Below are positions 36,462 through 54,743 of a stretch of 64,000 nucleotides of DNA, piece after piece; within the stretch, counting starts at the first letter, position 1, and each line of letters starts with the position of its first letter. The position numbers and the translations under genes were made by a program. Origin of the DNA: Escherichia coli (lineage in GTDB: Bacteria; Pseudomonadota; Gammaproteobacteria; Enterobacterales; Enterobacteriaceae); assembly GCA_902500055.1 (NCBI GenBank), contig GCA_902500055.1_4131.1. One strand, 5' to 3'. The notes under the pieces were generated by a model. That model did not search any database and was not told the origin of the DNA. It saw only the letters and a list, made by a program, of their open reading frames with translations.

Positions 36462-36540
36462 ATACACTTATGCACCCTGTGGGCTAGTTTTTGTCTATGC
36501 GTATATAATAGCAAAGGGACTGACCGGAGTCAATCCCTTT
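36462..36540 (+). repeat. conserved intergenic unit, copy 1
   Basis: ATACACTTATGCACCCTGTGGGCTAG ... hairpin AAAGGGACTGACCGGAGTCAATCCCTTT plus T-run; also at 39212, 42222, 45607. Confidence 0.6.
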
Positions 36541-36555
36541 TTTTATTCTTTTTTG

Positions 36556-36756
36556 TTAGATGATTCTCCAATCATCAACGATCATGGTAAGATACCGAAC
36601 CAGTGATTCGAGTGATTCGTGTTCTCGATAGTCTGCCGCACCGCCAGCGGTACAAGTACAGCCGATTAAGCCGTTTTGCAATTCCTTAATCTGTACATCG
36701 ATAAGGTTGGCTTTAGCTTCTTTCAGTACTTCAACCAGGGCGATAGCGATAGACAT
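36556..36756 (-). CDS. hypothetical protein
   Basis: 66 aa. Confidence 0.5.
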   Translation of the reverse strand: MSIAIALVEVLKEAKANLIDVQIKELQNGLIGCTCTAGGAADYREHESLESLVRYLTMIVDDWRII

Positions 36757-36778
36757 AATGTTTTACTCCAAACTATTG

Positions 36779-36839
36779 GCGGGAGAACTATTCCCCCGCT
36801 CTATGTAAAACATTATACATTACTGGTTAGTACTGTCAA
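36779..36839 (-). promoter_or_regulatory. conserved promoter plus 5' leader hairpin
   Basis: Minus sense TTGACA-N-TATAAT followed by GCGGGGGAA..TTCTCCCGC palindrome. Confidence 0.5.
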
Positions 36840-36846
36840 ATAGTTT

Positions 36847-37104
36847 TTATGAAATATCTTCGATGTAGTCGGCCCATTTCATTTTTTCAGTACTGTCAAG
36901 TGCAATCGGATTGCTAGGATCAAACCATTCACCATTCCCGCAATACATCCCCACGGCGACGGTTTTATATCCATCCTGGGCCGCACTCCACGACATTGCA
37001 CGATAGATATGGCCTTTAACTGGTTGCAGTACTGGTAACGTTTTATGGTCTTCTACGTAGGCCATAGCTTGAGGATTTACCCGATATTGTGTGAATTGAT
37101 CCAT
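36847..37104 (-). CDS. hypothetical protein
   Basis: 85 aa. Confidence 0.5.
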   Translation of the reverse strand: MDQFTQYRVNPQAMAYVEDHKTLPVLQPVKGHIYRAMSWSAAQDGYKTVAVGMYCGNGEWFDPSNPIALDSTEKMKWADYIEDIS

Positions 37105-37180
37105 TATGTTTCCCCTTGTAGTTAGTAAAGTTATTACATCAGTACTATCAAGCTATGTCAATAGTACTGAAATAAAACTT

Positions 37181-37405
37181 TTAGATTAGATTATTGAGGC
37201 CGTTGATGGTAGACTCGCTTTCTTCTTTCTCCCATTGGCGGTAGTACTTCCATGCTTCATGATATGTGGCGATTAGTTCATCTTTTTGATCCTGGTTACA
37301 TGCCAGTACTGAATCACGGTGAGCGGTGTTATAGATAGAATCGAATGATTTCTTCTCTTCTGCCAGGTTAGCTACTTCCCGCATCAGTTCATCAAAGTTA
37401 GCCAT
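37181..37405 (-). CDS. hypothetical protein
   Basis: 74 aa; AAAGGAG upstream. Confidence 0.55.
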   Translation of the reverse strand: MANFDELMREVANLAEEKKSFDSIYNTAHRDSVLACNQDQKDELIATYHEAWKYYRQWEKEESESTINGLNNLI

Positions 37406-37423
37406 TTTATTACTCCTTTTAGT

Positions 37424-37480
37424 GGGGGAGGATATCTCCCCCTATGCAAAACATTATACTTTGTTTTAGTTATTATGCAA
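37424..37480 (-). promoter_or_regulatory. conserved promoter plus 5' leader hairpin
   Basis: Minus sense TTGCAT-16 nt-TATAAT, then GGGGGAGATATCCTCCCCC palindrome. Confidence 0.5.
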
Positions 37481-37736
37481 GTACTTTTTTCATATAAACA
37501 TTAAATTCTACACCGCCGTAACCTTCCACGATGATATGTTTTGCGTTATCACGCTTGCACATAGTGAAACCGTTGTTGATATGTTCTGCATTTTCCAGGG
37601 ATACATCACCGATTGCAGCACATACGGCACTAATAACAGTATTCCGCAAAGTACTGGTATCATTAGCGGTCATAGTAGTTTGCAGTACTACGTTGTCGTA
37701 TACGTGTGCATTGATAGTGATTTCGATAGTGTTCAT
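37473..37736 (-). CDS. hypothetical protein
   Basis: Track ORF trimmed to Met19 (MNTIEITIN...); upstream part is leader hairpin read-through. Confidence 0.5.
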   Translation of the reverse strand: MNTIEITINAHVYDNVVLQTTMTANDTSTLRNTVISAVCAAIGDVSLENAEHINNGFTMCKRDNAKHIIVEGYGGVEFNVYMKKVLA

Positions 37737-37823
37737 GGTGTATCTCCTGGACTTGAGGGGAAACCATTTCCCCCTCTCGATATAAAACATTATACGTTAA
37801 TCTAACTACAATGCAAGTACTTT

Positions 37824-38015
37824 TTAAATTTTATTTCCGATATAGTCCGGCATGTTCTTTTCAGTCATACGCTTTGCTAATGTCTGCATATGGCTTATAG
37901 CGTTCAAGGTGTCTTCCTCCAGGGATGAATCAAGATAATCAGGATCATTCTTCACCTTGCAATGATTATGATAGCGTAGTACAGCCAGTACTTTTTTAAC
38001 TTCTTCAACTGTCAT
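37824..38015 (-). CDS. hypothetical protein
   Basis: 63 aa. Confidence 0.5.
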   Translation of the reverse strand: MTVEEVKKVLAVLRYHNHCKVKNDPDYLDSSLEEDTLNAISHMQTLAKRMTEKNMPDYIGNKI

Positions 38016-38284
38016 AATAAGTACCCCACTTCGTTAGCTTTCAGGTTAGTATCAATCATCAGTGGATTTTTGTAGTTCACAAAACGATTAGTTTTCTCGA
38101 TAGCGAATCCCATATAATCCAGCTTGCTTACAGTACATTCATTCTTAAAAACTTCTTTCGCTGTATCGATGGCTGATTGCATGGATAACCGCCCATCTAA
38201 ATTAATGTTTCCAAATGATCCACCAGCAGAAGTAGGATTACCGTTCATATCTTTAATGATCATAGTAGCGGAGTAGCTGGACAT
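38012..38284 (-). CDS. hypothetical protein
   Basis: 90 aa; ATGA-coupled to downstream gene. Confidence 0.5.
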   Translation of the reverse strand: MSSYSATMIIKDMNGNPTSAGGSFGNINLDGRLSMQSAIDTAKEVFKNECTVSKLDYMGFAIEKTNRFVNYKNPLMIDTNLKANEVGYLL

Positions 38285-38372
38285 AATTTTGTTTCCTTTT
38301 ATTGGTGGGGGAGAACTATTCTCCCCTTGATGTAAACTATTATACAGTACTGATATACTTTGTCAAATACTT

Positions 38373-38777
38373 TTATTCGCCCATATAGATTAAGTTATCA
38401 TCGCCTACATAGGGATCGCAAACGTTGATTTCTTCGCAGTACTTCGTGAATACATCGCCATAGTGACCTAAACCACGATCCCAAAAACCAGTTCCGTGAC
38501 CTTCGCGGGTAAGGAACAGATCATGACCAGCTTGCTCATAACCGTAATCAATAAACATACCGCGAACTACTTCCAGATCATTACCGTGTTTCTCAATGAA
38601 GCGAGAACATGCAATCACCGCCGCTTGACGTGCTTCATCAGATAACTCATAATCTTCCAGGTAATCGCCGTTATCATTATGTACAGTACTGAATTGCATA
38701 GCTTCAATGTAACCAGCGACCATTGCAGCATGATTTTTATCGTTGGCGATATTCCGAGCAAGATTAGTAGTAGTCAT
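38373..38777 (-). CDS. hypothetical protein
   Basis: 134 aa; motif REGHGTGFWDRG. Confidence 0.55.
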   Translation of the reverse strand: MTTTNLARNIANDKNHAAMVAGYIEAMQFSTVHNDNGDYLEDYELSDEARQAAVIACSRFIEKHGNDLEVVRGMFIDYGYEQAGHDLFLTREGHGTGFWDRGLGHYGDVFTKYCEEINVCDPYVGDDNLIYMGE

Positions 38778-38798
38778 GATTTTATTCCTTTTAGTATC

Positions 38799-38857
38799 GG
38801 GGAGAACTATTCTCCCCTTGATGTAAACTATTATACAGTACTAAGATACTTTGTCAA
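38799..38857 (-). promoter_or_regulatory. conserved promoter plus 5' leader hairpin (archetype)
   Basis: Minus sense TTGACA-16 nt (AGTACTG)-TATAAT, GTTTACATCAA, then GGGGAGAATAGTTCTCCCC, then AAAGGAA and ATG. Confidence 0.55.
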
Positions 38858-38861
38858 ATAC

Positions 38862-39083
38862 TTAATTACGTTTAAAATGATATGTACCTTTATCATCCTG
38901 TACGCCCCATACTGATTTACCATCAACACCAGTGAAGCCGGATTGTAATTCAATATGGAAACCATTATTATCAACTACAAAAACTTTTTTATTTTCATCC
39001 CGATAACATTGATATTCTGAATCAACATTAAAGGCCGCATCATTCAGACGATTGGAAGCGTAAATGCAAGTCATTGTAGTCAT
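38862..39083 (-). CDS. hypothetical protein
   Basis: Track ORF trimmed to Met12 (MTTMTCIY...). Confidence 0.5.
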   Translation of the reverse strand: MTTMTCIYASNRLNDAAFNVDSEYQCYRDENKKVFVVDNNGFHIELQSGFTGVDGKSVWGVQDDKGTYHFKRN

Positions 39084-39211
39084 GATTTTATTCCTTAATA
39101 TACCAGGGAGAACCATTTCCCCCTCTCGATATAAAACATTATACTTGATTCTAAGTACAATGCAAGTACTTTTTAAAAAATAGTTTTCAGTACTGAATAC
39201 TTATATAATAG

Positions 39212-39295
39212 ATACACTTCCGCACCCTATGGGTCAGTGAGTTATCTCTCAATGGATATATAATAGCAAAGGGACTGACCGGAGTCAATCCCTTT
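39212..39295 (+). repeat. conserved intergenic unit, copy 2
   Basis: GATACACTTCCGCACCCTATGGGTCAG ... AAAGGGACTGACCGGAGTCAATCCCTTTTTT. Confidence 0.6.
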
Positions 39296-39306
39296 TTTAA
39301 TCTTTT

Positions 39307-39891
39307 TTATCGTGTTACCTTACTTGCTGCCACATCACGCTTTTTATAGTACTGATTCCAGATATTGCAGGTTAAACCGTAATCAAGTACTTTAATAAGG
39401 CCATTACGATCCTGGCCGATATTCTGTTTTCTGATATCTCTTATCGTTAGTGTTGATAATGTATCATCGACGTGTTGTAGTGCATCAGCAAAGCGGTGCT
39501 GGCGTTCGATTGCATTACGTTTAATATTGTACTTTAATTCATTGCACGCGTTTACGTGCTTCACACTACCTTTGCTTGCAGTACTCAACCGATCCATAAC
39601 GATAAACATATTATCAGGATCGCATAAATGCATATGCACCTTTGCAAAGTACTGTTTCAACTGAGGGCGGTCATAGTCTAAAAAATTCCATACCTTACAT
39701 TCAGTTTCATTTTGTTCTACACCCGCATCACAATTCGCGACCTTAATCACTAACCGATCATTTAAAGCGAAAACTATACGGGAAGAACCAGCACCGATGA
39801 TCTCCAGGCCAGCTAACCGACAAGCTGAAAGGATCTCTTTGTTGGTTTCCATTTCTGACAGTGTACGGATGAATTTAGTATAATTACGCAT
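39307..39891 (-). CDS. Hanks-type (eukaryotic-like) Ser/Thr protein kinase-like protein
   Basis: Trimmed to Met20 after AAGGAG; Gly loop IGAGSSRIVF, Lys in VIKV, catalytic-loop-like RDIRKQN, DYG in place of DFG. Confidence 0.55.
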   Translation of the reverse strand: MRNYTKFIRTLSEMETNKEILSACRLAGLEIIGAGSSRIVFALNDRLVIKVANCDAGVEQNETECKVWNFLDYDRPQLKQYFAKVHMHLCDPDNMFIVMDRLSTASKGSVKHVNACNELKYNIKRNAIERQHRFADALQHVDDTLSTLTIRDIRKQNIGQDRNGLIKVLDYGLTCNIWNQYYKKRDVAASKVTR

Positions 39892-39922
39892 TGCATGTTC
39901 TCCTTGAGTTAATGAAACTATA

Positions 39923-40165
39923 TTACAGTACTTTACTATCAATGGCAACTACTTTTTTAACATTAACGGCGTGGATCACTTCCTTCGTGTTTTTAGTACT
40001 GAATACTTTCGCCGCTCCTTGTTCGACCGTGATACGATAGCGACCATTAACATCAACCATATTAATAAAGTCCGGCGTGCTGAATGGTGTTGTTTTACAT
40101 TTGAGTACTGTTAACAGTTCCACCAGCGATGTAGTTTCTTTGATACGTTTTTCTAAAGTAATCAT
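39923..40165 (-). CDS. hypothetical protein
   Basis: Track ORF trimmed to Met20 (MITLEKRIK...). Confidence 0.5.
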   Translation of the reverse strand: MITLEKRIKETTSLVELLTVLKCKTTPFSTPDFINMVDVNGRYRITVEQGAAKVFSTKNTKEVIHAVNVKKVVAIDSKVL

Positions 40166-40222
40166 TTTGTTTCCCCCGTGTTGGTATGTACATATAGTAC
40201 TAAAACATTTGAGTACTGTCAA

Positions 40223-40441
40223 TTAGATAATATTATATTTCTTTAAAGATAATGCGTCTTGGGTTGGCTGATACTCGATACCGTTCCCATTATTGACTTC
40301 AACTAATAAACCTTTGTCAATTAGTTTTTTAATAGTACGATACCCCTGTTGAAAATTGGTAAAATGTGAATCATTACGAAAGGTATAACCGTGCTTAACT
40401 GCTTCATCAATAGTTTTCTTTTCGATTTTAGATAATTTCAT
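40223..40441 (-). CDS. hypothetical small protein, possible DNA-binding
   Basis: Trimmed to Met20 (MKLSKIEKK...); shares leader sequence with the upstream gene. Confidence 0.45.
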   Translation of the reverse strand: MKLSKIEKKTIDEAVKHGYTFRNDSHFTNFQQGYRTIKKLIDKGLLVEVNNGNGIEYQPTQDALSLKKYNII

Positions 40442-40494
40442 TTTGTTTCTCCCGTGTTGGTATGTGTACATAATACTAAAACAATTGAGTACTG

Positions 40495-40749
40495 TCAACG
40501 TGATATTAGTTTTATTTTCTTATTATATTGTTGGTGTTCATATAGGTTTATTTTTCCTGTGTTCTCTATTACTATTCTGTTGTTAGTGTCCACATCGATT
40601 ACACGCAGTTTCCCGTTGCTTAACTTCCTTGGTAATAGGTTACCATTAATAAACTCATTAGCAAGCTGTACGGCCTTTGTGATGATTCTCTTCGGTGCTT
40701 TATAGTGTACCCGTAAGATGTTATCTTTATATAGTTGAACCTTAATCAT
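40495..40749 (-). CDS. hypothetical protein
   Basis: 84 aa. Confidence 0.5.
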   Translation of the reverse strand: MIKVQLYKDNILRVHYKAPKRIITKAVQLANEFINGNLLPRKLSNGKLRVIDVDTNNRIVIENTGKINLYEHQQYNKKIKLISR

Positions 40750-40810
40750 TTTGTTTGTCCTATAAAAAAGGCGGGATCAGTTCCCGCCGTGTTGTTAGTA
40801 CTGCAAGTTA

Positions 40811-41206
40811 TTAGATAACCTGGCGGCGTTTACTGTATACTGTTACACGATTACCCTTACGATCATGTCGGATCTCTTTCTGGTTGCGAATCAGTTCACT
40901 TGGACGCTTAAGGTTTGCCAGGTGATCCGCGTGAGTCCATGCGGTGTGGTTTACCTGTACTTTGATATCAGAATCAGCGATAAACTCATCTTGTGCGTCA
41001 AGTATTGCCGCCAGCATATCCGCTCGTTTTAGTTCTGCTGCTGTTAGTACTGGCTCAGGTGAATTCACAATATCAGAGATTTCTTTGAACTGTACGGCCC
41101 AGCGTTGACCTTTCGGTGCTGTCGTTCCCATGTCTTTAAATGCTGCTCCTTCCTCGCGTGCAACAATACGGGCAGCTTCACGGGTAGCGTAGAATTTAGT
41201 AATCAT
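40811..41206 (-). CDS. hypothetical protein, paralog of 52866..53132
   Basis: Start set to Met4 (MITKFYATREAARIV...) by alignment with MNIKYFATREQARIA; shared ...RKGNRVTVY tail. Confidence 0.55.
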   Translation of the reverse strand: MITKFYATREAARIVAREEGAAFKDMGTTAPKGQRWAVQFKEISDIVNSPEPVLTAAELKRADMLAAILDAQDEFIADSDIKVQVNHTAWTHADHLANLKRPSELIRNQKEIRHDRKGNRVTVYSKRRQVI

Positions 41207-41301
41207 GGTATACATCCTATTAGTTGAGTTAGTACTACAAGTTAGAGTCTATTATAAAGTACTATCTGGGCAATGTCAAATAGTACTTTAAATGGATTCT
41301 A

Positions 41302-41625
41302 TTACATGTCTTTCTTACGTTTTACATCGTAGTAGCGAACTGTTATTTCTTTGTTAATCTCTTTTTCGATGCGGTGAATAACTTTTTCTTTCGGGTTGAA
41401 ACCTATAACGGTTTCTTTAATGATCTCCAAACCAGTGTATTCGCCTTGCGTACCGTAACCGTATGTAAAGGTTTCGTGTCCCAGGTCTTCCCAGCGGTCG
41501 CCAATTAACGCAGACACGTAGCAAGAGTGGTAAGTATTGCCGTTCCGATCAGTCCAGCGATTAACTTTAATGTCAAAGGAGGTTACAATTTTCAATTCCA
41601 CTTTCTGGGTAAGGATCATAGCCAT
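41302..41625 (-). CDS. hypothetical protein, paralog of 47258..47602
   Basis: 107 aa; shared YGYG and C-terminal VKRKKD. Confidence 0.55.
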   Translation of the reverse strand: MAMILTQKVELKIVTSFDIKVNRWTDRNGNTYHSCYVSALIGDRWEDLGHETFTYGYGTQGEYTGLEIIKETVIGFNPKEKVIHRIEKEINKEITVRYYDVKRKKDM

Positions 41626-41712
41626 TTTTATTTCTCTCTCTTTGTTAGGAGGGGAACCATTTCCCCGCCTTGATGTAAACTATTATACAGTACTAAGATA
41701 CTTTGTCAATAC

Positions 41713-41988
41713 TTAAGTATTGTAAATGTCGTGAATAGTGATAAAGTTTTTACGCCCGTAAACCTGTAAATCGGTATTAATGTAATGCTTATCAAGTACA
41801 TCCTCGACGCTTAAAGCCGTGTCGTGAATATCTTCGTAGAATTGAGGATCTACAATCTTGCTTAAGTCATCCGGCGTTAACTTATCGTTAAGCCATTGAA
41901 CCGCCTGGATATCTGCATCACGTTTCCATTGTTCCAGGTTAGTAGTCAGTACTTGTTCGATTTCGTTAGCTGTCAGTAGAATCCGCAT
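41713..41988 (-). CDS. hypothetical protein
   Basis: 91 aa. Confidence 0.5.
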   Translation of the reverse strand: MRILLTANEIEQVLTTNLEQWKRDADIQAVQWLNDKLTPDDLSKIVDPQFYEDIHDTALSVEDVLDKHYINTDLQVYGRKNFITIHDIYNT

Positions 41989-42008
41989 TTTAATGTTTCC
42001 TTATCAGT

Positions 42009-42150
42009 GGTTGATGTAAGTATTATACTCGTTTACTTTCTATTGTCAAACTATTTTATCAGGGGAGTTTTTCGTATGTCTTACTCCTGGACTACTTAAC
42101 GGGGTTACTTGTTTCGTTCCCCGTCCTGATGTAAAACATTATACTTGATT
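42009..42150 (-). repeat. duplicated ~140-bp leader cassette, copy 1
   Basis: Near-identical to 52141..52282; contains two tandem promoters and hairpins CGGGGAACG..CCCCG and GGAGTAAG..CTCC. Confidence 0.55.
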
Positions 42151-42221
42151 CTAAGTACAATGCAAGTACTTTTTAAAAATAGTTTTCAGTACTTGATAGT
42201 ACTAGCCACCAGCAAACAATA

Positions 42222-42301
42222 GATACATTTATGCACCCGGTGGGCTAATTTGTTTCTATGCGTATATAATAGCAAAGGGACTGACCGGAGTCAATCCCTT
42301 T
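42222..42301 (+). repeat. conserved intergenic unit, copy 3
   Basis: GATACATTTATGCACCCGGTGGGCTAA ... AAAGGGACTGACCGGAGTCAATCCCTTTTT. Confidence 0.6.
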
Positions 42302-43284: not shown

Positions 43285-43641
43285 CTATGATAAAATCATG
43301 ATAGGATATTCACTATCTATCAATACCTCGAATCCGAAACCTTCGTACCATTCTTTAAGATTAAAGGCGTTATCTTCTCCCGTATCGCATTCTAAGATGA
43401 TACAATCTGAATCATCGGCGGCATCGATAAAGGCATTCATTAATTCGTTACCTTCACCATTGCCCCGACTATCAGGATCAACATAAAGAGAATCAATAAA
43501 CGCTACACGGTCATAATCAAGATCCGGTGCAATGATTCCACGTTTAACAAACCAGTACTGCAATTGTGCTACTTTGCCCTGTACCTGATAACCAGTGATC
43601 TCTCCATTGTCAGTAGTACGCGTGATATGTTGTATTCCCAT
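43285..43641 (-). CDS. GNAT-family N-acetyltransferase-like protein
   Basis: 118 aa; acetyl-CoA motif-A-like IDSLYVDPDSRGNGEGNELMNAFIDAA. Confidence 0.5.
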   Translation of the reverse strand: MGIQHITRTTDNGEITGYQVQGKVAQLQYWFVKRGIIAPDLDYDRVAFIDSLYVDPDSRGNGEGNELMNAFIDAADDSDCIILECDTGEDNAFNLKEWYEGFGFEVLIDSEYPIMILS

Positions 43642-44164: not shown

Positions 44165-44205
44165 AATTGATCAAGTATTGATCAGATCATTTTTGATCAA
44201 TATTA
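44165..44205 (-). promoter_or_regulatory. cluster of TTGATCA palindromes (4 GATC sites in ~40 bp) in a leader
   Basis: AAATTGATCAAGTATTGATCAGATCATTTTTGATCAATATT. Confidence 0.4.
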
Positions 44206-44293
44206 TACAGTTACATTTGTGCACCCTATGGGTTAGTGACGTTCTCGTCTTGATGTAAGTATTATGCCAGTACTGGATGATATTGTCAATAGA

Positions 44294-45483: not shown

Positions 45484-45606
45484 GATTTGTTTCCTTATTA
45501 CCAGGGGAAACCGTTTCCCCTTTCGATGTAAAACATTATACGCTTATTGAGATAGTTTGCAAGTACTTTTTAAAAATAGTTTTCAGTACTCAATACTTAT
45601 ATAATA

Positions 45607-45692
45607 GATACACTTATGCACCCGGTGGGCTAGTGAGCTATCTCTCAATGAATATATAATAGCAAAATGGCTGACCGAAGTCAACCACTTTT
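45607..45692 (+). repeat. conserved intergenic unit, copy 4 (degenerate hairpin)
   Basis: GATACACTTATGCACCCGGTGGGCTAGTGAG ... AAAATGGCTGACCGAAGTCAACCACTTTTTT. Confidence 0.55.
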
Positions 45693-45922: not shown

Positions 45923-46071
45923 TTTTTAGCCTGAAAATAATGTTTAATTTGAGCGGCGGTCAGTGCACAATTACGCAGGAAGTTTTCTGTATAACTTTTG
46001 CGAGTACTGAAAGAGAATTGACCTTTGCCGTTACCGATAGTAACATCAAACCGAGCGTTGTATTGTTTCAT
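45919..46071 (-). CDS. small hypothetical protein (50 aa)
   Basis: Track ORF trimmed to Met11 (MKQYNARFDVTIGNGKGQ...). Confidence 0.4.
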   Translation of the reverse strand: MKQYNARFDVTIGNGKGQFSFSTRKSYTENFLRNCALTAAQIKHYFQAKK

Positions 46072-46152
46072 TTTGTTTCTCCTGTTATTGGGGAGAATCA
46101 TTTCTCCCCTTCATGTAAACTATTATACAGTACTAAAAACTAATTGCAAGTA

Positions 46153-46299
46153 CTATTTTTTAGATTTACGCAAACTTTCTACCATCTCAGGAGTAAGGCC
46201 CGGCGGGTAGGAAACTACTTCATCAACGAAACGTAAAGGGAATACCCCAGCGAAAGGTGAACGTGCTTTCTTAGTATTACTCTTTTTTGATGCTTTCAT
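46153..46299 (-). CDS. small basic protein (48 aa)
   Basis: Hand-translated MKASKKSNTKKARSPFAGVF...; leader hairpin GGGGAGAATCATTTCTCCCC upstream. Confidence 0.4.
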   Translation of the reverse strand: MKASKKSNTKKARSPFAGVFPLRFVDEVVSYPPGLTPEMVESLRKSKK

Positions 46300-46578: not shown

Positions 46579-46583
46579 ATTAA

Positions 46584-48549: not shown

Positions 48550-48650
48550 AAACGCACTCAATCGCATTCTAACGACTTTAACGCCACCAGCTAGGGCAAT
48601 GCATCAGATAAACAGTTTAATACGTTAGAATCGTTTCTAGGCGGTGCTGG
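48550..48650 (-). other. interleaved inverted repeats (A-B-A'-B')
   Basis: CGCATTCTAACG ... GCCACCAGC ... CGTTAGAATCG ... GCTGGTGGC. Confidence 0.4.
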
Positions 48651-48672
48651 TGGCCTGGTAAACGATAAACAC

Positions 48673-48698
48673 AAAAAAGCCCACTGTATAAGTGGGCT
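48673..48698 (-). terminator. intrinsic terminator after 48720..49202
   Basis: Hairpin AGCCCACTTATACAGTGGGCT followed by T-run on minus sense. Confidence 0.55.
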
Positions 48699-48719
48699 AA
48701 TGATTCAGTACTTTAATTG

Positions 48720-49202
48720 TTATGCTTCAACTTTGCGATGAGCTTCGATCCATTCCTCGCGAGTCATACCACTGGAGTTAATCGCATCCAGTACTACCGC
48801 AATGCAGTTACCACGCACCGGAATCAGATATTCTTCCCCGTTATCAAGTACTACCGCTACACGTTCTTGAATCCATTTTTTAGCTTTTACTTCTGGCTTA
48901 TCTTCACCGTACTTTTTCGCCAGGGCTTTTTGTGCCATCTCTGTAACTACTTCCAGATCCAATCCAACTACTGCCGCCTGAATACTTTCAATTGTTGCTT
49001 GTAGTTCTGCTTCACGGGCCGCCTTTGCCGCTTCAATTTCTGCCGCTTTATTTGCTTGTAGTTCTTTCGCAGTACTGTAAGCGATGTTAAAATTATTGCG
49101 TACCGCTTTCATGGTATCGTTATCCAGTTCAGCCAGGATCTCAGCCGCGACGTTAGTTTCATTTGCTACCAGTGCTTTGATGAATGATTTTACATTAGCC
49201 AT
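48720..49202 (-). CDS. Ala/Glu-rich coiled-coil protein, hypothetical
   Basis: Trimmed to Met6 (MANVKSF...) after GAGGA; central KAAEIEAAKAAREAELQATIESIQAA. Confidence 0.5.
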   Translation of the reverse strand: MANVKSFIKALVANETNVAAEILAELDNDTMKAVRNNFNIAYSTAKELQANKAAEIEAAKAAREAELQATIESIQAAVVGLDLEVVTEMAQKALAKKYGEDKPEVKAKKWIQERVAVVLDNGEEYLIPVRGNCIAVVLDAINSSGMTREEWIEAHRKVEA

Positions 49203-49408
49203 TTTATAAATCCTCAATTAAAGTTTAGTTTACGTTTATTAGTGTATCAAAGTTTTCTCGACGTGTCCAGTTTTTCGTTCGACTTACTGGCGGTCTACTT
49301 AGTGCTCCCCGTCTTGATGTAATACATTCTACGCTTTTCTGCGGTAATGTCAACTACTTTCTTAAAACTATTTTCAAAGTATCTCAGTACTACGATACTA
49401 CAAAAACA

Positions 49409-49430
49409 AAAAAAGCCCACCAGGTGGGCT
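49409..49430 (-). terminator. intrinsic terminator after 49437..49667
   Basis: Hairpin AGCCCACCTGGTGGGCT followed by T-run on minus sense. Confidence 0.5.
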
Positions 49431-49436
49431 ATGTAC

Positions 49437-49667
49437 TTAATCAGTGAGTAAAATATTAAACACTTTACCATTTAACGTTATTGGTGCACTGCTACCAGGC
49501 TCAAGATCCGTTAATATACCTGCAATCGCTTTATCATTGGCGACCTTTCCAGTGTCCAACAGTACTACAGTACTGATAAGATTAACGCTCGTTTCAATAT
49601 CATAATGCACGGCGTTAAGTAGTTGTGTAGTACTGCTTTCGTTAAGTAAAACAATTCGCTTAGTCAT
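49437..49667 (-). CDS. hypothetical protein
   Basis: 76 aa. Confidence 0.5.
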   Translation of the reverse strand: MTKRIVLLNESSTTQLLNAVHYDIETSVNLISTVVLLDTGKVANDKAIAGILTDLEPGSSAPITLNGKVFNILLTD

Positions 49668-49688
49668 GATGTTACCCCGTAGTATCTA

Positions 49689-49988
49689 TCAACGGCAATT
49701 AATAACGCCGGTATGCGTTACTTTCTCAGTATCCATTACAGTGACCGAACCGCGTTTAGTACTGGCATCATAATAAATTGTCGTGCTACCGTTTTCGTCT
49801 TCTTCATGGAACGGGCCGTTTTTAAATGCTTCCGGCTGAATCTCCAGATCCTTTAATACAATCTCGCCAGTACTTTCATCGGTCATTGCAACAGTGCACT
49901 GAATGAATTTTTCACTACTTACATCTAATGACGCATTAACAGCGAAAGAGGAAACAGATAAAGCCAGGGCGATGATTGTAATTTTCAT
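49689..49988 (-). CDS. secreted or periplasmic small protein
   Basis: 99 aa; N-terminal signal peptide MKITIIALALSVSSFAVNA with AxA-type cleavage site. Confidence 0.5.
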   Translation of the reverse strand: MKITIIALALSVSSFAVNASLDVSSEKFIQCTVAMTDESTGEIVLKDLEIQPEAFKNGPFHEEDENGSTTIYYDASTKRGSVTVMDTEKVTHTGVINCR

Positions 49989-50072
49989 TTGATTATCCTT
50001 AGTTACCAGGGGGAACCGCTCCCCCTTGCGATGTAAAATATTATACAGTACTAAAAACTATTATCAAGTACT

Positions 50073-50309
50073 TTATGATTTTTTATAAAACATTTCAGCA
50101 GTGATATTTTTACCCGTTGGCTGTACTTTATCCAGAATTTTTTGATGCCCTGGTCGTCCAAAGGAATATGATCCGTAAACAGTAAACCAGTAGTTGCCAT
50201 CAGTGTTTACATGTACAGCACAATAGGGTACGCCCCGCGATTCATCACTAGTAAAGTGTGCTACCGTTCCCGTTACATTCGAAGTCGTTGATTTGATTTG
50301 TTCAAGCAT
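50073..50309 (-). CDS. hypothetical protein
   Basis: 78 aa. Confidence 0.5.
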   Translation of the reverse strand: MLEQIKSTTSNVTGTVAHFTSDESRGVPYCAVHVNTDGNYWFTVYGSYSFGRPGHQKILDKVQPTGKNITAEMFYKKS

Positions 50310-50418
50310 TTTATTATTCCTTAGTTACCAGGGGGAACCGCTCCCCCTATGCAAAACATTATACGCGTTTAAAAACTAATTGCAAGTATTTTAATAAAAA
50401 GTATTTGAAAAATAGTTG

Positions 50419-50447
50419 TTGACAAGTGCATCCAGTACTGGCATAAT
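50419..50447 (+). promoter_or_regulatory. plus-strand sigma70-like promoter, divergent from early genes
   Basis: TTGACA-17 nt (CCAGTACTG)-CATAAT on the plus strand. Confidence 0.45.
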
Positions 50448-50448
50448 T

Positions 50449-50562
50449 ACTACATCAAGACGAAACAGTCACTAACCCACCGGGTGCCGAGATCCGTCTA
50501 TTAAATGATTCAGTACTGAAAAAGTAACGGGGAGTTATTATCTCCCCGCGTTGTTATTTTGT
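50449..50562 (+). ncRNA. candidate short plus-strand transcript
   Basis: Runs from the promoter at 50419 to hairpin CGGGGAGTTATTATCTCCCCG plus T-rich tract; contains CCCACCGGGTGC box; no ORF. Confidence 0.25.
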
Positions 50563-50775
50563 AAGGTATAAACAGAAGTCGCCTTTATTTGCTACGCCGC
50601 CAGTGTAACGCGATGAATAGTTAGAAACGTCCTGGACTTCTGCTATTACCAGGGTATCATCATTCAATTCGTCGCAGAAGCAAACGGCTGGATCTTGTAC
50701 GCCGATTTTGTCGGCATGTTCCCGCATAGATTTCACCAGTGCTTCCAGTTGGGAAAGAGTAGTGATATTAGCCAT
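50554..50775 (-). CDS. hypothetical protein
   Basis: Track ORF trimmed to Met11 (MANITTLSQ...). Confidence 0.5.
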   Translation of the reverse strand: MANITTLSQLEALVKSMREHADKIGVQDPAVCFCDELNDDTLVIAEVQDVSNYSSRYTGGVANKGDFCLYLTK

Positions 50776-50863
50776 TTTATTTTCCTCATTACCAGGGAGA
50801 ACCATTTCTCCCTTTGATGTAAACCATTATACAGTACTGAAAACTAATTGCAAGTACTTTTTT

Positions 50864-51124
50864 TCAGTATTGTTTATCGTCGTCTTCCTCGATGAATTGA
50901 CCGACGAAATGATCTACTTTCGCTTTGAGGCTTTTATAATCTTCTTCTACTTCCGTTAAACGTTCCTGGTAGTATTCCAGTGCCTCAAGATACGCCGCCT
51001 CAGCAGTTTTTGCACGCATAGCTAAATTCATTCCACGCGTTTCATCATAAAGCCAATAACCATCGGTGCACTGGCTAATAGATAATGACTTGCTTAGTGC
51101 TGTATAGCTAATTACTTTACTCAT
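50864..51124 (-). CDS. hypothetical protein
   Basis: 86 aa. Confidence 0.5.
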   Translation of the reverse strand: MSKVISYTALSKSLSISQCTDGYWLYDETRGMNLAMRAKTAEAAYLEALEYYQERLTEVEEDYKSLKAKVDHFVGQFIEEDDDKQY

Positions 51125-51181
51125 TAGATAACCCTCAGTAAAGGCGGGAACTATTACCCGCCATTATCTCAGTACTGAATA

Positions 51182-51421
51182 TTACATTCCAACCATTGCA
51201 GCACGGATCGCCGTAGTGCTATACTTGAATCCGTCCGGCGTTGTAGTAGTACCGTTGGCTTTTAATCTGCGGTACATACATTCCGCAGCAATATCTTTCG
51301 TTTTACTTTGTGCGATGCAATTTTGAGCAATCCGGTATAATGATTCATCGTTATTGATCCAAAGGCTTACATTCCAATGAGTTTTGTTTTTGTGCCCGTT
51401 GTAAGTTTTAGTACTAGCCAT
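51182..51421 (-). CDS. hypothetical protein, paralog of 53221..53460
   Basis: Trimmed to Met11 (MASTKTYNGHKNKTHWNVSLWINNDE...); shared C-terminal PDGFKYSTTAIRAAMVGM. Confidence 0.55.
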   Translation of the reverse strand: MASTKTYNGHKNKTHWNVSLWINNDESLYRIAQNCIAQSKTKDIAAECMYRRLKANGTTTTPDGFKYSTTAIRAAMVGM

Positions 51422-51511
51422 TTTTAAATCCTCGTTTGAGCGGGGAACCACTCCCCGCCTTGATGTAAAGTATTATACGCTTTTAAACTTAGTTTACAAG
51501 TACTTTTTAAA

Positions 51512-52120
51512 TTAATATTCGATTGATTCCACTACGCCATCAATAACATTGAATTGATATTCGTTACCCTCAATCAGTGCAGTAATGTTTTCAGTAGTGA
51601 ATTGATCCTCATATGCATTCTCTAAATCACGGTACAACTTACGAGATAATTCACGGATCGCATCAGTCAGTAAGTTTTCCAGATCCTCAGCCAATGCCGC
51701 CTGTTTTACAGTTAAATCAGTGTAGCGAGTATCAACGCAACCGCCTACCGTGTTTTCGTGTGCGTAGCGTGATTGGAAACGTTCTACACTCATTTCTAAA
51801 TCATCCTCGTTCAACAGGTGACGGATTGAACGATATTTCGTTAACGCCTTAACCTTGCGTAAAAACTTCTCAGCGTCAACGTGGTTAGTACTGATTGATG
51901 CACCGTCACCTTGCGACCAAAAACCACTGTATTGCAATTCAGCTTCATCTATGCCGTATTCTGGTAGTACTGTTTCTTTATAGTACTCGATAACGCCCTC
52001 AGCAAAGAAATTATCCTCACATGAACGCTCACGATCCCGAACCAGTTCAATAGCCGCCGTTTTTTGTTCTGCGTTCAGTTCAGAAAAAGCCATAACAAAA
52101 GTAGTAGTGATAGTTTTCAT
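51512..52120 (-). CDS. hypothetical protein
   Basis: 202 aa; motif SGFWSQGDGAS; preceded by duplicated leader cassette. Confidence 0.55.
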   Translation of the reverse strand: MKTITTTFVMAFSELNAEQKTAAIELVRDRERSCEDNFFAEGVIEYYKETVLPEYGIDEAELQYSGFWSQGDGASISTNHVDAEKFLRKVKALTKYRSIRHLLNEDDLEMSVERFQSRYAHENTVGGCVDTRYTDLTVKQAALAEDLENLLTDAIRELSRKLYRDLENAYEDQFTTENITALIEGNEYQFNVIDGVVESIEY

Positions 52121-52140
52121 TTTGTAACCCTCATTCAGTA

Positions 52141-52282
52141 GTTGATGTAAGTATTATACGCTTTTACTTTCTATTGTCAAACTATTTTATCAGGGGAGTT
52201 TTTCGTGTGCCTTACTCCTGGGCTACTTAACGGGAAGTTACTTATTTCGTTCCCCGTCCTGATGTAAAACATTATACGCCTT
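52141..52282 (-). repeat. duplicated ~140-bp leader cassette, copy 2
   Basis: Near-identical to 42009..42150. Confidence 0.55.
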
Positions 52283-52344
52283 TAAACATAGTTTACAAGT
52301 ACTTTTTAAAAATAGTTTTCAGTACTGAATATTAAAAAAAAGTA

Positions 52345-52373
52345 TTGACAGCATTATCAAGTACTGGCATAAT
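52345..52373 (+). promoter_or_regulatory. plus-strand sigma70-like promoter
   Basis: TTGACA-17 nt-CATAAT, followed by CCCACCGGGTGC box. Confidence 0.4.
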
Positions 52374-52547
52374 ATACCCCATGACAACAGCTAACCCACC
52401 GGGTGCACAATTGTAACTATACTAAACTAATTTTTCTATAGATACACTCCCGCACCCTATGGGCTACGGCTTATCTGCCAATGAATACATTATGCCAGTA
52501 CTGACAAAATAAGTCAATACCGGCAATTGTAAAGATTTGTAAACTGC

Positions 52548-52784
52548 TTATACTGCAATCGCGTCCAGGCTGTAATAATAATAAGTGCCGTATTGGTGTA
52601 CTTTATTACCTTTTATTTCAGTACTGAATGAATCCGAACGGTTTGCATATGATGTTAATTTAAAGTACTTTGATTTGCTGATACGTTGCCATACACCACA
52701 GATCCGCTGTAAGTAAGTAGTTTTATTCGTGGTAGTATCTTTTACGGTTTTAACTTCAGTCATATACATATTAGTCATTTTCAT
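52548..52784 (-). CDS. hypothetical protein
   Basis: 78 aa. Confidence 0.45.
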   Translation of the reverse strand: MKMTNMYMTEVKTVKDTTTNKTTYLQRICGVWQRISKSKYFKLTSYANRSDSFSTEIKGNKVHQYGTYYYYSLDAIAV

Positions 52785-52865
52785 TACTCCAGGTTATAGG
52801 CGGGAAGAGTTCCCGCTCTCGATGTAAAACATTATACGCTTTTATCAGTACGGTGCAAGTACTTT

Positions 52866-53132
52866 TTATTCAAGTACTGCAATCTTTTTAGTACGGTACA
52901 CGGTCACGCGGTTGCCCTTTCGGTCGAGCTTTATTTCTACCACTCGACGCGATACACTATCGGGACTTTTTAAGGCCGCTAACCAGTACTGTAATGATCT
53001 GGCCGTACTACGCTTTACAATGGCCCAACGTTCACCACTTGCCGATCCCGCTCCCATATCTTTAAACGTTGCCCCGTCCTGGCGTGCGGCGATCCGAGCT
53101 TGTTCACGCGTCGCAAAATACTTAATATTCAT
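52866..53132 (-). CDS. hypothetical protein, paralog of 40811..41206
   Basis: Trimmed to MNIKYFATREQARIA... Confidence 0.55.
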   Translation of the reverse strand: MNIKYFATREQARIAARQDGATFKDMGAGSASGERWAIVKRSTARSLQYWLAALKSPDSVSRRVVEIKLDRKGNRVTVYRTKKIAVLE

Positions 53133-53220
53133 GTTGTTGCCCTTATCGTTGGTGTATGAATAAAACACTATTATAAAGTACTATCCCCGTGCAATAGTAC
53201 TTTAAATAAATTCTATTCTA

Positions 53221-53460
53221 TTACATTCCAACCATAGCCGCACGGATCGCAGTAGTGCTATATTTGAATCCGTCCGGTGTTTTATCTTGTCCAGTCTGTT
53301 CTAAAAATAACATCATATGACGGGCCGCATCATTGCGATTAGTATTGGCGGCAATAAAGTCCAGGGCCAACCGATACAATCCCTCATCGTTATTAATCCA
53401 CAGGCTTACATTCCAATGAGTTTTGTTTTTGTGACCTAAGAACATTTTTGATTTAGCCAT
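53221..53460 (-). CDS. hypothetical protein, paralog of 51182..51421
   Basis: Trimmed to Met14 (MAKSKMFLGHKNKTHWNVSLWINNDE...). Confidence 0.55.
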   Translation of the reverse strand: MAKSKMFLGHKNKTHWNVSLWINNDEGLYRLALDFIAANTNRNDAARHMMLFLEQTGQDKTPDGFKYSTTAIRAAMVGM

Positions 53461-53552
53461 TTTTTTAATCCTCTTATATAGTGGGGAACTATTCCCCACC
53501 TGATGTAAAACATTATACGCTTTTATTCAGTACTGTCAAACTAATTTTTAAC

Positions 53553-53915
53553 TTATTCGTAAATTTTGCCACTGTCAGCCCATACCAGGAAACGAGGCAT
53601 ATTATCCCATGCATCTTGTTTTAAATTTAAACCGTGTAATACTTCTGTACTTTCCATTCCTGGTACTGGTTTACTATACACCGCGAAATTTTCGCCCATA
53701 TACTGATAAACCATCGTCAAATCACTGGCGATCATCTTATGGATCATCGCATCAAGCATCACGGTGGCGGCGTATTGTTCACGCTTAAGCGGCAGCATTT
53801 TAATCAGTTCGCGGTATGCGTCAATGTGAGTTTTAACCGTTGCCGCCGGAAGATCTTTCATATCGTCGCGGAAGTTAACCAGGTTAGCAATGATTTTAGT
53901 GATTTGAGTCGCCAT
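53553..53915 (-). CDS. hypothetical protein
   Basis: 120 aa; first gene of the early-like cluster. Confidence 0.55.
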   Translation of the reverse strand: MATQITKIIANLVNFRDDMKDLPAATVKTHIDAYRELIKMLPLKREQYAATVMLDAMIHKMIASDLTMVYQYMGENFAVYSKPVPGMESTEVLHGLNLKQDAWDNMPRFLVWADSGKIYE

Positions 53916-54028
53916 CGTTTTAATCTCTTAAAAGTGAGTAGGGAAGTGTTCCCGCTCTCGATGTAAAACATTATACGCTTTTTTCAGTACTGTGCAAGTA
54001 CTTTCTACAAATACTTTTAAAATAGTTT

Positions 54029-54125
54029 TCTTTCTATATAGGGGAACTATTATTCAGTACTGAATCAATCCAGGGGAACTATCTTTCTATATAGGAGTAC
54101 TATTATTCAGTACTGAATCAATCCA
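54029..54125 (+). repeat. two ~43-bp direct repeats
   Basis: TCTTTCTATATAGGGGAACTATTATTCAGTACTGAATCAATCCA repeated with 2 mismatches. Confidence 0.6.
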
Positions 54126-54277
54126 CTAAATCATCCCTATACCCCGTAAAACGGCCTCAGACGCATTCTAACGCATTAATACACCTAAGCTATACATTTG
54201 CACCATTCTAATCATTCCAGGGCTTTACGGGCCGTTTAAACGCGTTAAATTATTTTCAATTATTTTGTTTTTAGGTA

Positions 54278-54305
54278 TTGACTTGATCCTGAAAAAGCGT
54301 ATAAT
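54278..54305 (+). promoter_or_regulatory. plus-strand sigma70-like promoter
   Basis: TTGACT-16 nt-TATAAT. Confidence 0.4.
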
Positions 54306-54493
54306 TACTACATAGACGCGAGAAAGCGGAAACCCCAGGGGGTGCGGAATTACGCCCAAAATTCAAGATATAAAAAAAGGATACACTCCCGCACCCTAGC
54401 AGGCAAACGCACTTTCTCAGTACTGAAATATAGTACCATAGTCCGGCCCAGGATAGCAAGCAAATTAATTAAAATTTTTTTGCTTCCAGGGTA

Positions 54494-54521
54494 TTGCTTT
54501 ATTTTTTCAGTACTGTATAAT
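54494..54521 (+). promoter_or_regulatory. plus-strand sigma70-like promoter
   Basis: TTGCTT-16 nt (CAGTACTG)-TATAAT; downstream sequence paralogous to that after 54305. Confidence 0.4.
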
Positions 54522-54743
54522 AGTTCCATCAAGTCGAGAAAGACTCAAGCCCACCGGGTGCATAGTTACGCCCAAAATTCAGTACTGAAAAAATTTTTAA
54601 AAATATCCGTCCAGGCCGTTGACATTGCCCCCAGTTTATAAGATAATGATTCCAGATTCAGAAAAATCTAACTCCAGATACTGCGGGGAAACTATCCCCA
54701 CGCGGTAGGGGAACTATTGGAAAAAACAAAATAAAATTTTGAT

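Follow-up and report, generated by a model that had tools for sequence, protein, structure and literature searches.

A Repeated, Promoter-Coupled Structured Element in the Terminal Repeat of a Jumbo Coliphage

Introduction

Several phage and plasmid systems bear comparison with the element described here, a short box that recurs in a 64,000-nucleotide (nt) stretch of DNA from an Escherichia coli assembly (contig GCA_902500055.1_4131.1; the whole stretch is called the window below). The put sites of phage HK022 suppress transcription termination and pausing without any factor, through the zinc-binding domain of the β′ subunit of RNA polymerase (RNAP), and the boxB loops of phages lambda and P22 read GAAAA or GACAA. 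Face-to-face promoters and overlapping antisense RNAs occur in coliphage 186 (pR/pL) and in ColE1 (RNA I/RNA II), and the T4-type promoter-early stem-loop (PeSL) elements, reportedly described by Arbiol et al. in 2010, are repeated cassettes with a terminator-like stem-loop. HK022 putL begins at +3 of the PL transcript, acts on the host RNAP without a protein, and is associated with a weak −10-like hexamer (PMC9378689).

The box belongs to a promoter-coupled structured element that is under strong purifying selection and is confined to the terminal repeat of a jumbo phage. The motif defines a distinct class of promoters by a transcribed structured element, invariant in phages from Escherichia to Klebsiella, Pectobacterium, Cronobacter, Salmonella, and Yersinia. 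Phages of this Rak2-like group depend on host RNAP at the start of infection, and their terminal repeats carry about 50 small host-takeover genes.

Source Phage and Terminal Repeat

The phage region of the window shares 92–94% identity with the ~350-kb Asteriusvirus jumbo coliphages SP27, phAPEC6, 121Q, and PBECO4, and the window is, on sequence grounds, from an Asteriusvirus-type (Rak2-like) jumbo coliphage. A homologous unit in phage vB_Ec-M-J falls within the annotated direct terminal repeat (DTR) at positions 1–21525; from homology to this repeat, the corresponding DTR of ~21 kb is placed at about 34.5–56 kb of the window. The probable physical genome end lies near 56 kb, where the GC skew also changes sign. 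The repeat consists of an array of small open reading frames (ORFs) on the minus strand, each with its own σ70-type promoter, and all copies of the box are located in it. In this phage group, the DTR is an early region that depends on host RNAP (PMC5259590, PMC7318152), and in the related phage PA5oct it is transcribed early by the host RNAP and is a source of abundant non-coding RNAs (PMC7318152). Published promoter analyses of phages CBB and GAP32 describe RpoD-like, TGAAACG-type, and late promoters, and the present element is not among them.

Box Copies and Their Promoters

The exact 15-mer GCACCCNNTGGGYTA occurs seven times in the window, in forward orientation at 36472, 42233, 44221, 45618, and 52452 and in reverse at 50473 and 52392, against an expected count of 0.00 in dinucleotide-preserving shuffles. 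Allowing up to two mismatches adds 39222 (forward), 54547 (reverse), and the variant at 54331 (reverse), all three of which had been listed in an earlier, sequence-only reading of this DNA; the recurrent box that this reading reported is therefore real, with seven exact and three near copies where the shuffles give none. The same search returns a near-match at 49417 (forward), which was rejected as a member, being GCCCACCtGGTGGGC followed by seven T residues, an ordinary terminator. An eleventh, degenerate copy that the sequence-only reading missed lies at 54391–54403 on the minus strand (CCTGCTAGGGTGC) and faces the unit at 54331. Scanning all 64 kb with a covariance model of the whole unit and no filters recovers the ten units and the degenerate one, and none beyond 36.4–54.6 kb.

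Every copy in the window lies 21–29 nt past the end of the −10 element of a σ70-type promoter, in whose sense the box is TARCCCANNGGGTGC. Minus-strand transcripts therefore carry the forward copies and plus-strand transcripts the reverse copies, the opposite of the strand first assigned to the forward copies. The earlier description of reverse copies as lying downstream of plus-strand promoters is right as far as it goes, the forward copies lying likewise, at the same distance, downstream of minus-strand promoters. The box had also been called directional and not palindromic; it is directional relative to its promoter, but contains a small internal inverted repeat (CCC/GGG). The longer conserved context noticed around the forward copies, GATACACTT, is genuine; its reverse complement is the conserved GUGUAUC found after the box in the RNA sense. 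Between the two roles originally offered, a shared RNA leader or a binding site, a leader RNA is supported by the single sense in which each box is read from its own promoter and by evolutionary signatures of the RNA type, but to call the units mRNA leaders would be too simple, since many point away from genes, stop at terminators, or form convergent pairs.

The box promoters are made up of an A-tract, TTGACW, a 17–18-bp spacer that is usually TG-extended, and a −10 element of TATTAT, CATAAT, or TATAAT, and the distance from the −10 element to the CCC of the box falls into two classes, 21–22 nt and 25–29 nt. The coupling was measured over the window and five related loci, which give 77 raw box matches, or about 65 sites once overlapping registers are merged. 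At 55 of these ~65 sites a σ70-type promoter reaches a score of 9 or more out of 12, its −10 ending 21–30 nt upstream of the box and always in the sense orientation; the ~10 sites that lack one are degenerate or weak, the sole well-formed core among them being that at 11399 in RaK2. Transcription is predicted to start ~15–20 nt upstream of the box, and the module to begin at about +2 to +5.

No ribosome-binding site (RBS) or ORF follows the module directly. At units 39222 and 45618 an ordinary promoter and then a gene come next, while units 36472, 42233, and 44221 lead into longer non-coding stretches, each also with a further promoter. Across the collection, 7 units meet a terminator within ~35–70 nt and 14 meet an ordinary promoter first. 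Typical units do not themselves have the GC hairpin and U-run of an intrinsic terminator, the sequence after the helix being AU-mixed; among the window sites, only the non-member at 49417 and the degenerate 54397–54378 qualify. In four units (36513–36540, 39268–39295, 42274–42301, and 45664–45691) the −35 element lies within a 9–12-bp GC hairpin with an A-run on one side and a T-rich run on the other, which reads as a combined promoter and terminator, the terminator being more effective on antisense transcription; in phage G17 the counterpart of this hairpin carries a terminator annotation.

The geometry of the box raises the alternative that it is a second promoter, namely an activator or sigma site in a −35 region near −30, with a −10-like hexamer 11 nt further on, as in a T4 MotA-like tandem middle promoter. 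T4 middle-promoter geometry does match a box with a downstream hexamer, most window copies have TATTAT, TATAAT, TATACT, or CAAAAT starting 11 nt after the box, and a TATWRT-like consensus is found at +23 to +28. Against this, TANNNT stands 11 or 13 nt past the box in just 49 of 86 units (57%), which weakens the idea considerably, and the subfamilies CGCCCAAAAUU and UACCCAUUAAAA lack it entirely. Essentially every well-formed box has an upstream promoter at a constrained distance, antisense units would yield RNAs of only ~25 nt from such a start, and the units show no association with the MotA box TTTGCTTTA. We regard a second promoter as quite improbable. The T4 late motif is likewise not associated with the units.

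Conservation among Rak2-like Phages

A 101-nt unit used as a query finds homologs in Rak2-like jumbo phages only, with 88–100% identity in Asteriusvirus and ~72–82% in Klebsiella RaK2 and K64-1, Pectobacterium CBB, Cronobacter GAP32, Salmonella Munch and 7t3, and Erwinia and Yersinia phages. Units were collected from RaK2, CBB, GAP32, Munch, fHe-Yen9-03, and four jumbo contigs from a pattern scan of IMG/VR. In that scan, a 16-mer gave 47 loci, with the full unit only in jumbo contigs of ~345–378 kb; matches in small contigs were discarded as chance matches to the 16-mer alone. In all, 86–88 distinct units were obtained, the ten Rak2-like genomes representing four or more genera. Across it, CC...GG is invariant and CCCA..GGGTGC nearly so, within an extended consensus (the C of CCC being position 0) of T-A-R CCCA-Y-A GGGTGC R-K-A-R n T-S Y-R-Y-Y-Y T-A-T.

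The confinement to terminal repeats also holds in CBB, where all 11 units in the 37.5 kb examined fall inside the annotated repeat of 22,456 bp and, over the full 378-kb contig, exact 16-mer matches map only to the two DTR copies. In Pseudomonas phage PA5oct, which is more distant, the 39-kb repeat contains no unit. Rfam gives no matches in the 64 kb at the gathering score and, at E ≤ 5 over 35.5–56 kb, two unrelated weak matches, neither of them at a unit; a tRNA and tmRNA scan found nothing at the units. In the literature searched, the literal motif strings match unrelated primers only, with no published description of the element, and no relevant transcriptomic study of these phage genera was found.

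Repetition of this kind could also mark a promoter cassette of the T4 PeSL type that is mobile or recombinogenic, in which similarity comes from recent spread, gene conversion, or recombination and the box itself has no function. The repeat is indeed a mosaic of small ORFs split by promoter/stem-loop cassettes (a 27-copy family, D1, and the box family), terminator-plus-promoter hairpins are present, and gene content varies among close relatives. Between genera, though, flanks, stems, and spacers have diverged to ~72% identity while the core is invariant and the stems covary, which argues for purifying selection rather than recent copying; this is the least probable of the explanations weighed here.

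Predicted RNA Structure of the Module

The module spans ~47 nt and consists of a 5′ hairpin, 4–5 nt, R-CCC-AYN-GGGUGC, 6–7 nt, and a YRYYY pentamer. The 5′ hairpin, between the transcription start and the box, has a stem that varies from unit to unit, in ~25 versions (GCCA/UGGC, GACG/CGUC, GGAG/CUCC, ACCG/CGGU, and ACCAC/GUGGU among them) that close the same conserved, purine-rich loops, GNGAAA, AGAACAA, or AGAUAA. In an 88-unit model-based alignment, which leans toward structure, all four pairs show double-sided changes, in 31–44 sequences each, and the covariation score is 0.49 against 0.23 in shuffles, with none of 500 shuffles reaching it. The picture is the same in an ungapped MAFFT alignment of 29 units chosen for having the stem. 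By an unselected measure, a stem of at least 4 bp is present in 61 of 86 units, whereas shuffles average 32 and never exceed 41. In the short-spacing class the stem is absent and GAAAACAA is retained.

Two further helices involve the box itself. The first pairs GGGUG with the YRYYY pentamer and is fully compatible in 71 of 86 units, with 16 different compatible pentamers, where the random expectation is ~3%. Positions +19 to +23 vary almost only by transitions (for example, UAUCU, CGUCU, CGCCC, CGUCC, UACCC, and UGUCU), and all of these variants are Watson–Crick or wobble complements of the invariant GGGUG; the five pairs are 93–100% formed, against 33–60% when the partner is slid. As many of the pairs are G·U, this helix is specific to the sense RNA. 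The second helix, CCC:GGG, closes a loop of 3 nt in most units and of 4 nt (UAUA, UAGA, UCAA, or AUUA) in others, and both loop lengths coexist in single genomes. Two independent compensatory changes from C:G to U:A are found in it, at 16111 in CBB (CCTACAAGG) and at 4611 in Yen9-03 (CCTTATAAGG), with the GAP32 ortholog of the CBB unit unchanged. Since the GGG is shared, the two helices are mutually exclusive, and they are nearly isoenergetic, averaging −3.7 and −2.5 kcal/mol, with each the more stable in about half of the units.

Other readings of the transcribed sequence were tried and rejected. A long-range helix between the 5′ end and the 3′ tail (AGAUA/UAUCU or AGACG/CGUCU) appears in some minimum-free-energy folds and is not general. 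A mini-ORF, with NTG at +16 to +18 encoding M-Y-L-stop and GGGUG as its Shine–Dalgarno sequence, fails because 16 of 41 units have no NTG and strongly pairing subfamilies have UUA or GCA at that position. A CsrA or RegB site, with GGA or GGAG in the loop, does not hold for orthologous units, which swap GGAG and AUAA. No hammerhead or other ribozyme core was seen by inspection, Rfam being the only source of models applied.

The units in the window are as follows.

36460–36540, minus strand, sense to the genes: unit 1; −35 TTGACT at 36533–36528 in the GC hairpin 36513–36540, −10 TATTAT at 36510–36505; short leader without a 5′ hairpin (CAUAGACAAAAAC), box core CCCACAGGGTGC at 36483–36472, 3′ partner GTATCC at 36465–36460.

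39210–39295, minus strand, sense to the genes: unit 2; −35 TTGACT at 39288–39283 in a hairpin, −10 TATTAT at 39265–39260; 5′ hairpin UGAG-AGAUAA-CUCA, box core CCCATAGGGTGC at 39233–39222, 3′ partner GTATCT at 39215–39210; a D1-type promoter and an ORF of 84 amino acids follow.

42221–42301, minus strand, sense to the genes: unit 3; −35 TTGACT at 42294–42289 in a hairpin, −10 TATTAT at 42271–42266; short leader, box core CCCACCGGGTGC at 42244–42233, 3′ partner GTATCT at 42226–42221, then a Chi site at 42206–42213.

44209–44289, minus strand, sense to the genes: unit 4; −35 TTGACA at 44289–44284, TG-extended −10 CATAAT at 44266–44261; 5′ hairpin GACG-AGAA-CGUC, box core CCCATAGGGTGC at 44232–44221, 3′ partner GTAACT at 44214–44209 with one mismatch.

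45606–45691, minus strand, sense to the genes: unit 5; −35 TTGACT at 45684–45679 in a hairpin, −10 TATTAT at 45661–45656; 5′ hairpin UGAG-AGAUAG-CUCA, box core CCCACCGGGTGC at 45629–45618, 3′ partner GTATCT at 45611–45606; a D1-type promoter starts 55 nt past the box, followed by an ORF of 113 amino acids.

50419–50548, plus strand, antisense to the gene row: unit 6; −35 TTGACA at 50419–50424, −10 CATAAT at 50442–50447; 5′ hairpin GAC-GAAACA-GUC, box core at 50476–50487, 3′ partner CCGTCT at 50494–50499; bidirectional terminator at 50528–50548, ~40 nt past the box, for a predicted RNA of ~100 nt.

52345–52418, plus strand: unit 7, left member of a face-to-face pair; −35 TTGACA at 52345–52350, −10 CATAAT at 52368–52373; box core at 52395–52406, 3′ partner GTAACT at 52413–52418; exactly 45 nt to the anti-box of unit 8.

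52440–52517, minus strand: unit 8, right member of the pair with unit 7; −35 TTGACT at 52517–52512, −10 CATAAT at 52494–52489; 5′ hairpin UGGC-AGAUAA-GCCG, box core CCCATAGGGTGC at 52463–52452, 3′ partner GTATCT at 52445–52440.

54278–54357, plus strand: unit 9, left member of the second pair; −35 TTGACT at 54278–54283, −10 TATAAT at 54300–54305; 5′ hairpin CGC-GAGAAA-GCG, variant box CCCCAGGGGGTGC at 54333–54345, strong 3′ partner ACGCCC at 54352–54357.

54378–54459, minus strand: unit 10, degenerate, 45 nt from unit 9; weak promoter with TTGCTA at 54459–54454 and TACTAT at 54435–54430; 5′ hairpin ACU-GAGAAA-AGU, variant box CCTGCTAGGGTGC at 54403–54391; scores as an intrinsic terminator (54397–54378) because its GGGUGC:GUAUCC helix is followed by U7.

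54494–54573, plus strand, toward the probable genome end: unit 11; −35 TTGCTT at 54494–54499, −10 TATAAT at 54516–54521; 5′ hairpin AGUC-GAGAAA-GACU, box core CCCACCGGGTGC at 54550–54561, strong 3′ partner ACGCCC at 54568–54573.

Convergent Pairs and Fur Boxes

Units frequently occur face to face: 34 of the 81 units with enough flanking sequence (42%) face another unit, and in 26 of these (13 pairs, from several genera and from several loci per genome) the gap from box end to anti-box is exactly 45 nt. The remaining gaps are 63 nt for eight units, 56 nt for two, and 67 nt for one. The window holds two such pairs, 52392/52452 and 54331/54391, and a read-through RNA of either partner is predicted to fold as a long box:anti-box hairpin. 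In Munch, RaK2, Yen9-03, and two metagenomic phages, a near-consensus Fur box (for example, GATAATGATAATCATT) is central in the wider pairs, those that bear it having a spacing of 56–67 nt, and suggests by its sequence an input of the host iron regulator to early transcription in some genera. There is no Fur box within this window; those of the relatives' terminal repeats are as follows.

1041–1056 and 7434–7449 in Munch (locus L004): Fur boxes.

12154–13524 in RaK2 (locus L001): Fur boxes.

344–359 in locus L005: Fur box.

2825–2840 and 8083–8098 in locus L008: Fur boxes.

1034–1049 in locus L032: Fur box.

These arrangements bear directly on whether the box is a double-stranded DNA operator, at which a phage or host protein bound at about +15 to +33 would roadblock or time the early promoters, with the RNA pairing incidental. 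The exact spacing of the 13 convergent pairs and the Fur boxes, by which the intervals would serve as protein-binding platforms, keep this hypothesis alive, and the strictly fixed position of the box relative to the promoter and its 12-bp invariant core would suit an operator as well. The evolution of the element is harder to reconcile with it: the CCC-to-GGG distance is 3 or 4 nt within one genome, two C:G pairs have changed to U:A in a compensatory manner, and the five positions past the box vary almost only by transitions that preserve pairing, which makes sense for the sense RNA only. The adjoining 5′ hairpin clearly evolves as RNA, and a simple roadblock would not need an invariant orientation to the promoter. 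An operator is rather unlikely in our judgment, though a serious rival; were it one, the motif would identify the regulon of an early regulator.

The orientation of the units points in another direction, toward stand-alone RNAs of ~60–170 nt, made in high copy from the first-entering DNA and acting in trans, for example by titrating a host RNA-binding factor or a defence sensor in the manner of a decoy or sponge, or as antisense RNAs. The units occur in any orientation relative to genes, antisense units meet a terminator 35–60 nt past the box in at least four genera (as at 50456–50548 in the window, 23357 and 16289 in RaK2, 12026 in Munch, and 10245 in CBB), and convergent partners would stop one another. 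Many of the −35 hairpins of box promoters are strong terminators for the opposite direction, and PA5oct offers a precedent in its abundant DTR non-coding RNAs (PMC7318152). Sense units that run without a terminator up to the next promoter and gene do not fit this proposal, nor does an invariant core that is mostly paired in both conformations and would make a poor base-pairing seed. Trans-acting RNAs are possible, if doubtful, as the role of the element.

Proposed Function of the Element

We give an even chance to the reading that the box is the invariant core of a ~47-nt structured RNA module marking a subclass of early transcripts, with a nut/put-like action the likeliest. That the element works as RNA is inferred from five things: the 5′ hairpin covaries, the variation is wobble-only, compensatory changes occur, the loop is flexible in length, and the orientation to the promoter never changes. 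About ten dedicated strong promoters for the host σ70 RNAP, present only in the ~21-kb terminal repeat, would start the module 2–5 nt past the transcription start. The box would then be the strand common to two mutually exclusive, nearly isoenergetic helices, so that the module would be bistable. As RNA, it may form a recognition platform or a switch that marks the transcript or the elongating polymerase. If the action is nut/put-like, as seems most likely, marked complexes would resist pausing, termination, or Rho, and would thus differ from transcripts of the ordinary promoters ~50–110 nt downstream. For the sense units, laid out as a promoter, an ORF-less module, and then an ordinary promoter with its gene, a mark on the transcript or elongation complex is, by analogy, the most economical reading.

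Because the 12-nt core is invariant across genera, a conserved host partner, RNAP or another, is likelier than a fast-evolving phage protein. A Pfam scan of the 20 largest ORFs of the repeat found no candidate RNA- or DNA-binding partner, the only matches being a GNAT domain, a weak kinase match, and DUF7249.

A number of observations weigh against a transcript mark of this kind. Start sites, RNA ends, and function are all predictions; no boxA, ops, or MotA box is found at the units; and canonical terminators on the gene strand of the repeat number only about ten. Antitermination is hard to square with units oriented away from genes or toward one another (convergent units make up 34 of 81), and the antisense and convergent units fit stand-alone short RNAs or control at the DNA level better. 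The exact 45-bp spacing, together with the central Fur-like palindromes in relatives, points to protein binding at the DNA level. The structural evidence has its own weaknesses: z-scores for single-sequence folding are unremarkable (−0.1 to −2.3), the stems of 4–6 bp are far smaller than those of put, the support for CCC:GGG consists of two double changes, and that for GGGUG:YRYYY is one-sided because GGGUG itself hardly varies. As the sequences form a few ancient subfamilies, the independent events are also fewer than the counts.

A bolder form of the proposal joins these strands. The element would represent an undescribed class of early regulatory RNA, whose compact two-state 5′ module binds a conserved host component, possibly RNAP as put does, and reprograms transcription or the fate of the RNA from about ten dedicated promoters of the first-injected terminal repeat, with the 45-nt mirror pairs acting as a bidirectional control point; we advance this tentatively, as less probable than not. 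Should the module act on RNAP or another host factor, it would add a new, compact member to the known regulatory RNAs and might serve as a part in synthetic biology.

Other Features of the Terminal Repeat

The Pfam matches correspond to minus-strand ORFs at 43285–43641 (GNAT acetyltransferase, E = 4e-9), 39307–39948 (a weak protein-kinase-like match below the cut-off, E = 0.004), and 53221–53499 (DUF7249 protein, E = 5e-11). A Munch early-region ORF is annotated as a putative protein kinase, its homology to the kinase-like ORF of the window not being established.

The 27-copy D1 family of promoter cassettes extends over 35.9–55.3 kb on the minus strand (for example, 50817–50871 and 46069–46163) and stands upstream of most small ORFs of the repeat. 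Its layout is TTGCAA/TTGACA-N16-TATAAT-GTTTTACATC (ACATC), a GC hairpin GGGGAGAA-nnnn-TTCTCCCC, an RBS, and ATG, and it resembles the T4-type PeSL cassettes. A third repeated non-coding element, of ~65–75 nt, is found downstream of ordinary promoters on the minus strand at 42064–42128 and 52195–52261, with a variant at 49267–49316. It has two predicted hairpins and no ORF (CAGGACGGGGAACGAAAyAAGUAAC..CCCGUUAAGUAG.CCAGGAGUAAG.CA.ACGAAAAACUCCCCUG) and may be another small RNA.

Within the gene-free 54.0–55.9 kb, an array with an 8-bp period (CGTCTAGC / CATCCAGC) occupies 54749–54900; it adjoins the probable genome end and the switch in GC skew and could be a packaging, end-recognition, or origin region. 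Chi sites number 11 in the window against ~0.3 expected, reading on the plus strand as CCACCAGC at 36418, 38220, 40120, 42206, 43106, 44568, 48584, and 55055 and as GCTGGTGG at 48646, 55067, and 62751. Eight share one orientation within the terminal repeat, and several of these fall in promoter spacers or directly after box units; CCACCAGC also occurs in the box-promoter spacers of relatives. The enrichment may protect linear ends from RecBCD. Chi-rich lambdoid phages are the subject of a 2025 paper (PMC12315714).

The palindrome CAGTACTG has 65 copies against 0.64 expected, spread over the whole window (for example, 36370, 44268, 50433, 52496, 54508, and 55096–55306), and AGTACT has 272 against ~21. 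Both are enriched within the repeat and beyond it. The motif is found directly before the −10 element, next to the −35 element (AGTACTTGCA), and ~60 bp upstream of promoters, and in this phage group it may bind a protein or form part of promoters. The long untranslated stretch after unit 44221 has three TGATCA palindromes, each with a Dam site, in the 32 bp at 44168–44199. A sub-threshold Rfam match to Trp_leader at 48671–48735 on the minus strand (27.9 bits against a gathering score of 41, E = 0.05) overlaps the terminator 48678–48698 and is probably a chance hairpin match.

Comparison with Known Systems

HK022 put resembles the box module in being RNA made by the host RNAP directly past a phage early promoter, with stem-loops, no ORF, and multiple copies. 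It acts in cis, and cis action of the box module would be an analogy drawn from it; a host-RNAP partner, as for put, would explain the invariance of the box core across genera. In form the two differ, put being ~70 nt long with two long bulged stems and an RNA triplex, whereas the box module has ~47 nt, helices of 4–6 bp, and an apparently two-state core. The module shares the position of put at the 5′ end of the transcript, and not its ~70-nt RNA with two long stem-loops. Put is present in two copies and the box module in about ten, of which many are antisense or convergent. Inspection, as opposed to alignment, showed no sequence resemblance to the features of put given in PMC9378689.

The lambdoid nut sites also place a short hairpin near the promoter, with a covarying stem, a conserved purine-rich loop, and an adjoining conserved linear element. 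In nut, this element precedes the hairpin, whereas in the box module it follows. The boxB loops are GNRA-like pentaloops of 5 nt, while those of the module have 6–8 nt, and 25 of 86 units are without a stem of at least 4 bp; N/boxB pairs co-vary between phages, which the box core does not do between phage genera. There is no boxA in the repeat, either as CGCUCUUA or as the UGCUCUUUAACAA of rrn operons, and GCTCTT is found in none of the 86 units from −30 to +60 of the box. No N-like protein is evident among the 20 Pfam-scanned ORFs, small arginine-rich proteins not being assignable by sequence. The RfaH ops/JUMPStart element GGCGGTAGnnTG has a single match with one mismatch, at 55209, outside any unit.

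Like PeSL, the box unit is a repeated intergenic σ70 early promoter with a stem-loop, ~70–100 bp in length and set among small variable early ORFs in a phage of the T4 superfamily, and it falls within the family as the PeSL cassettes are defined, the box being no part of that definition. Unlike PeSL, the box module adds a transcribed element with an invariant core of its own, in a class apart from the 27-copy family of the region. The transcripts of a box pair would overlap by ~120 nt and carry complementary hairpins, an arrangement that recalls 186 pR/pL and ColE1 RNA I/RNA II, but here the partners are the same element mirrored, at a fixed gap of 45 nt and in a virulent phage. We rate the element a candidate new example of a phage early promoter-proximal regulatory RNA.

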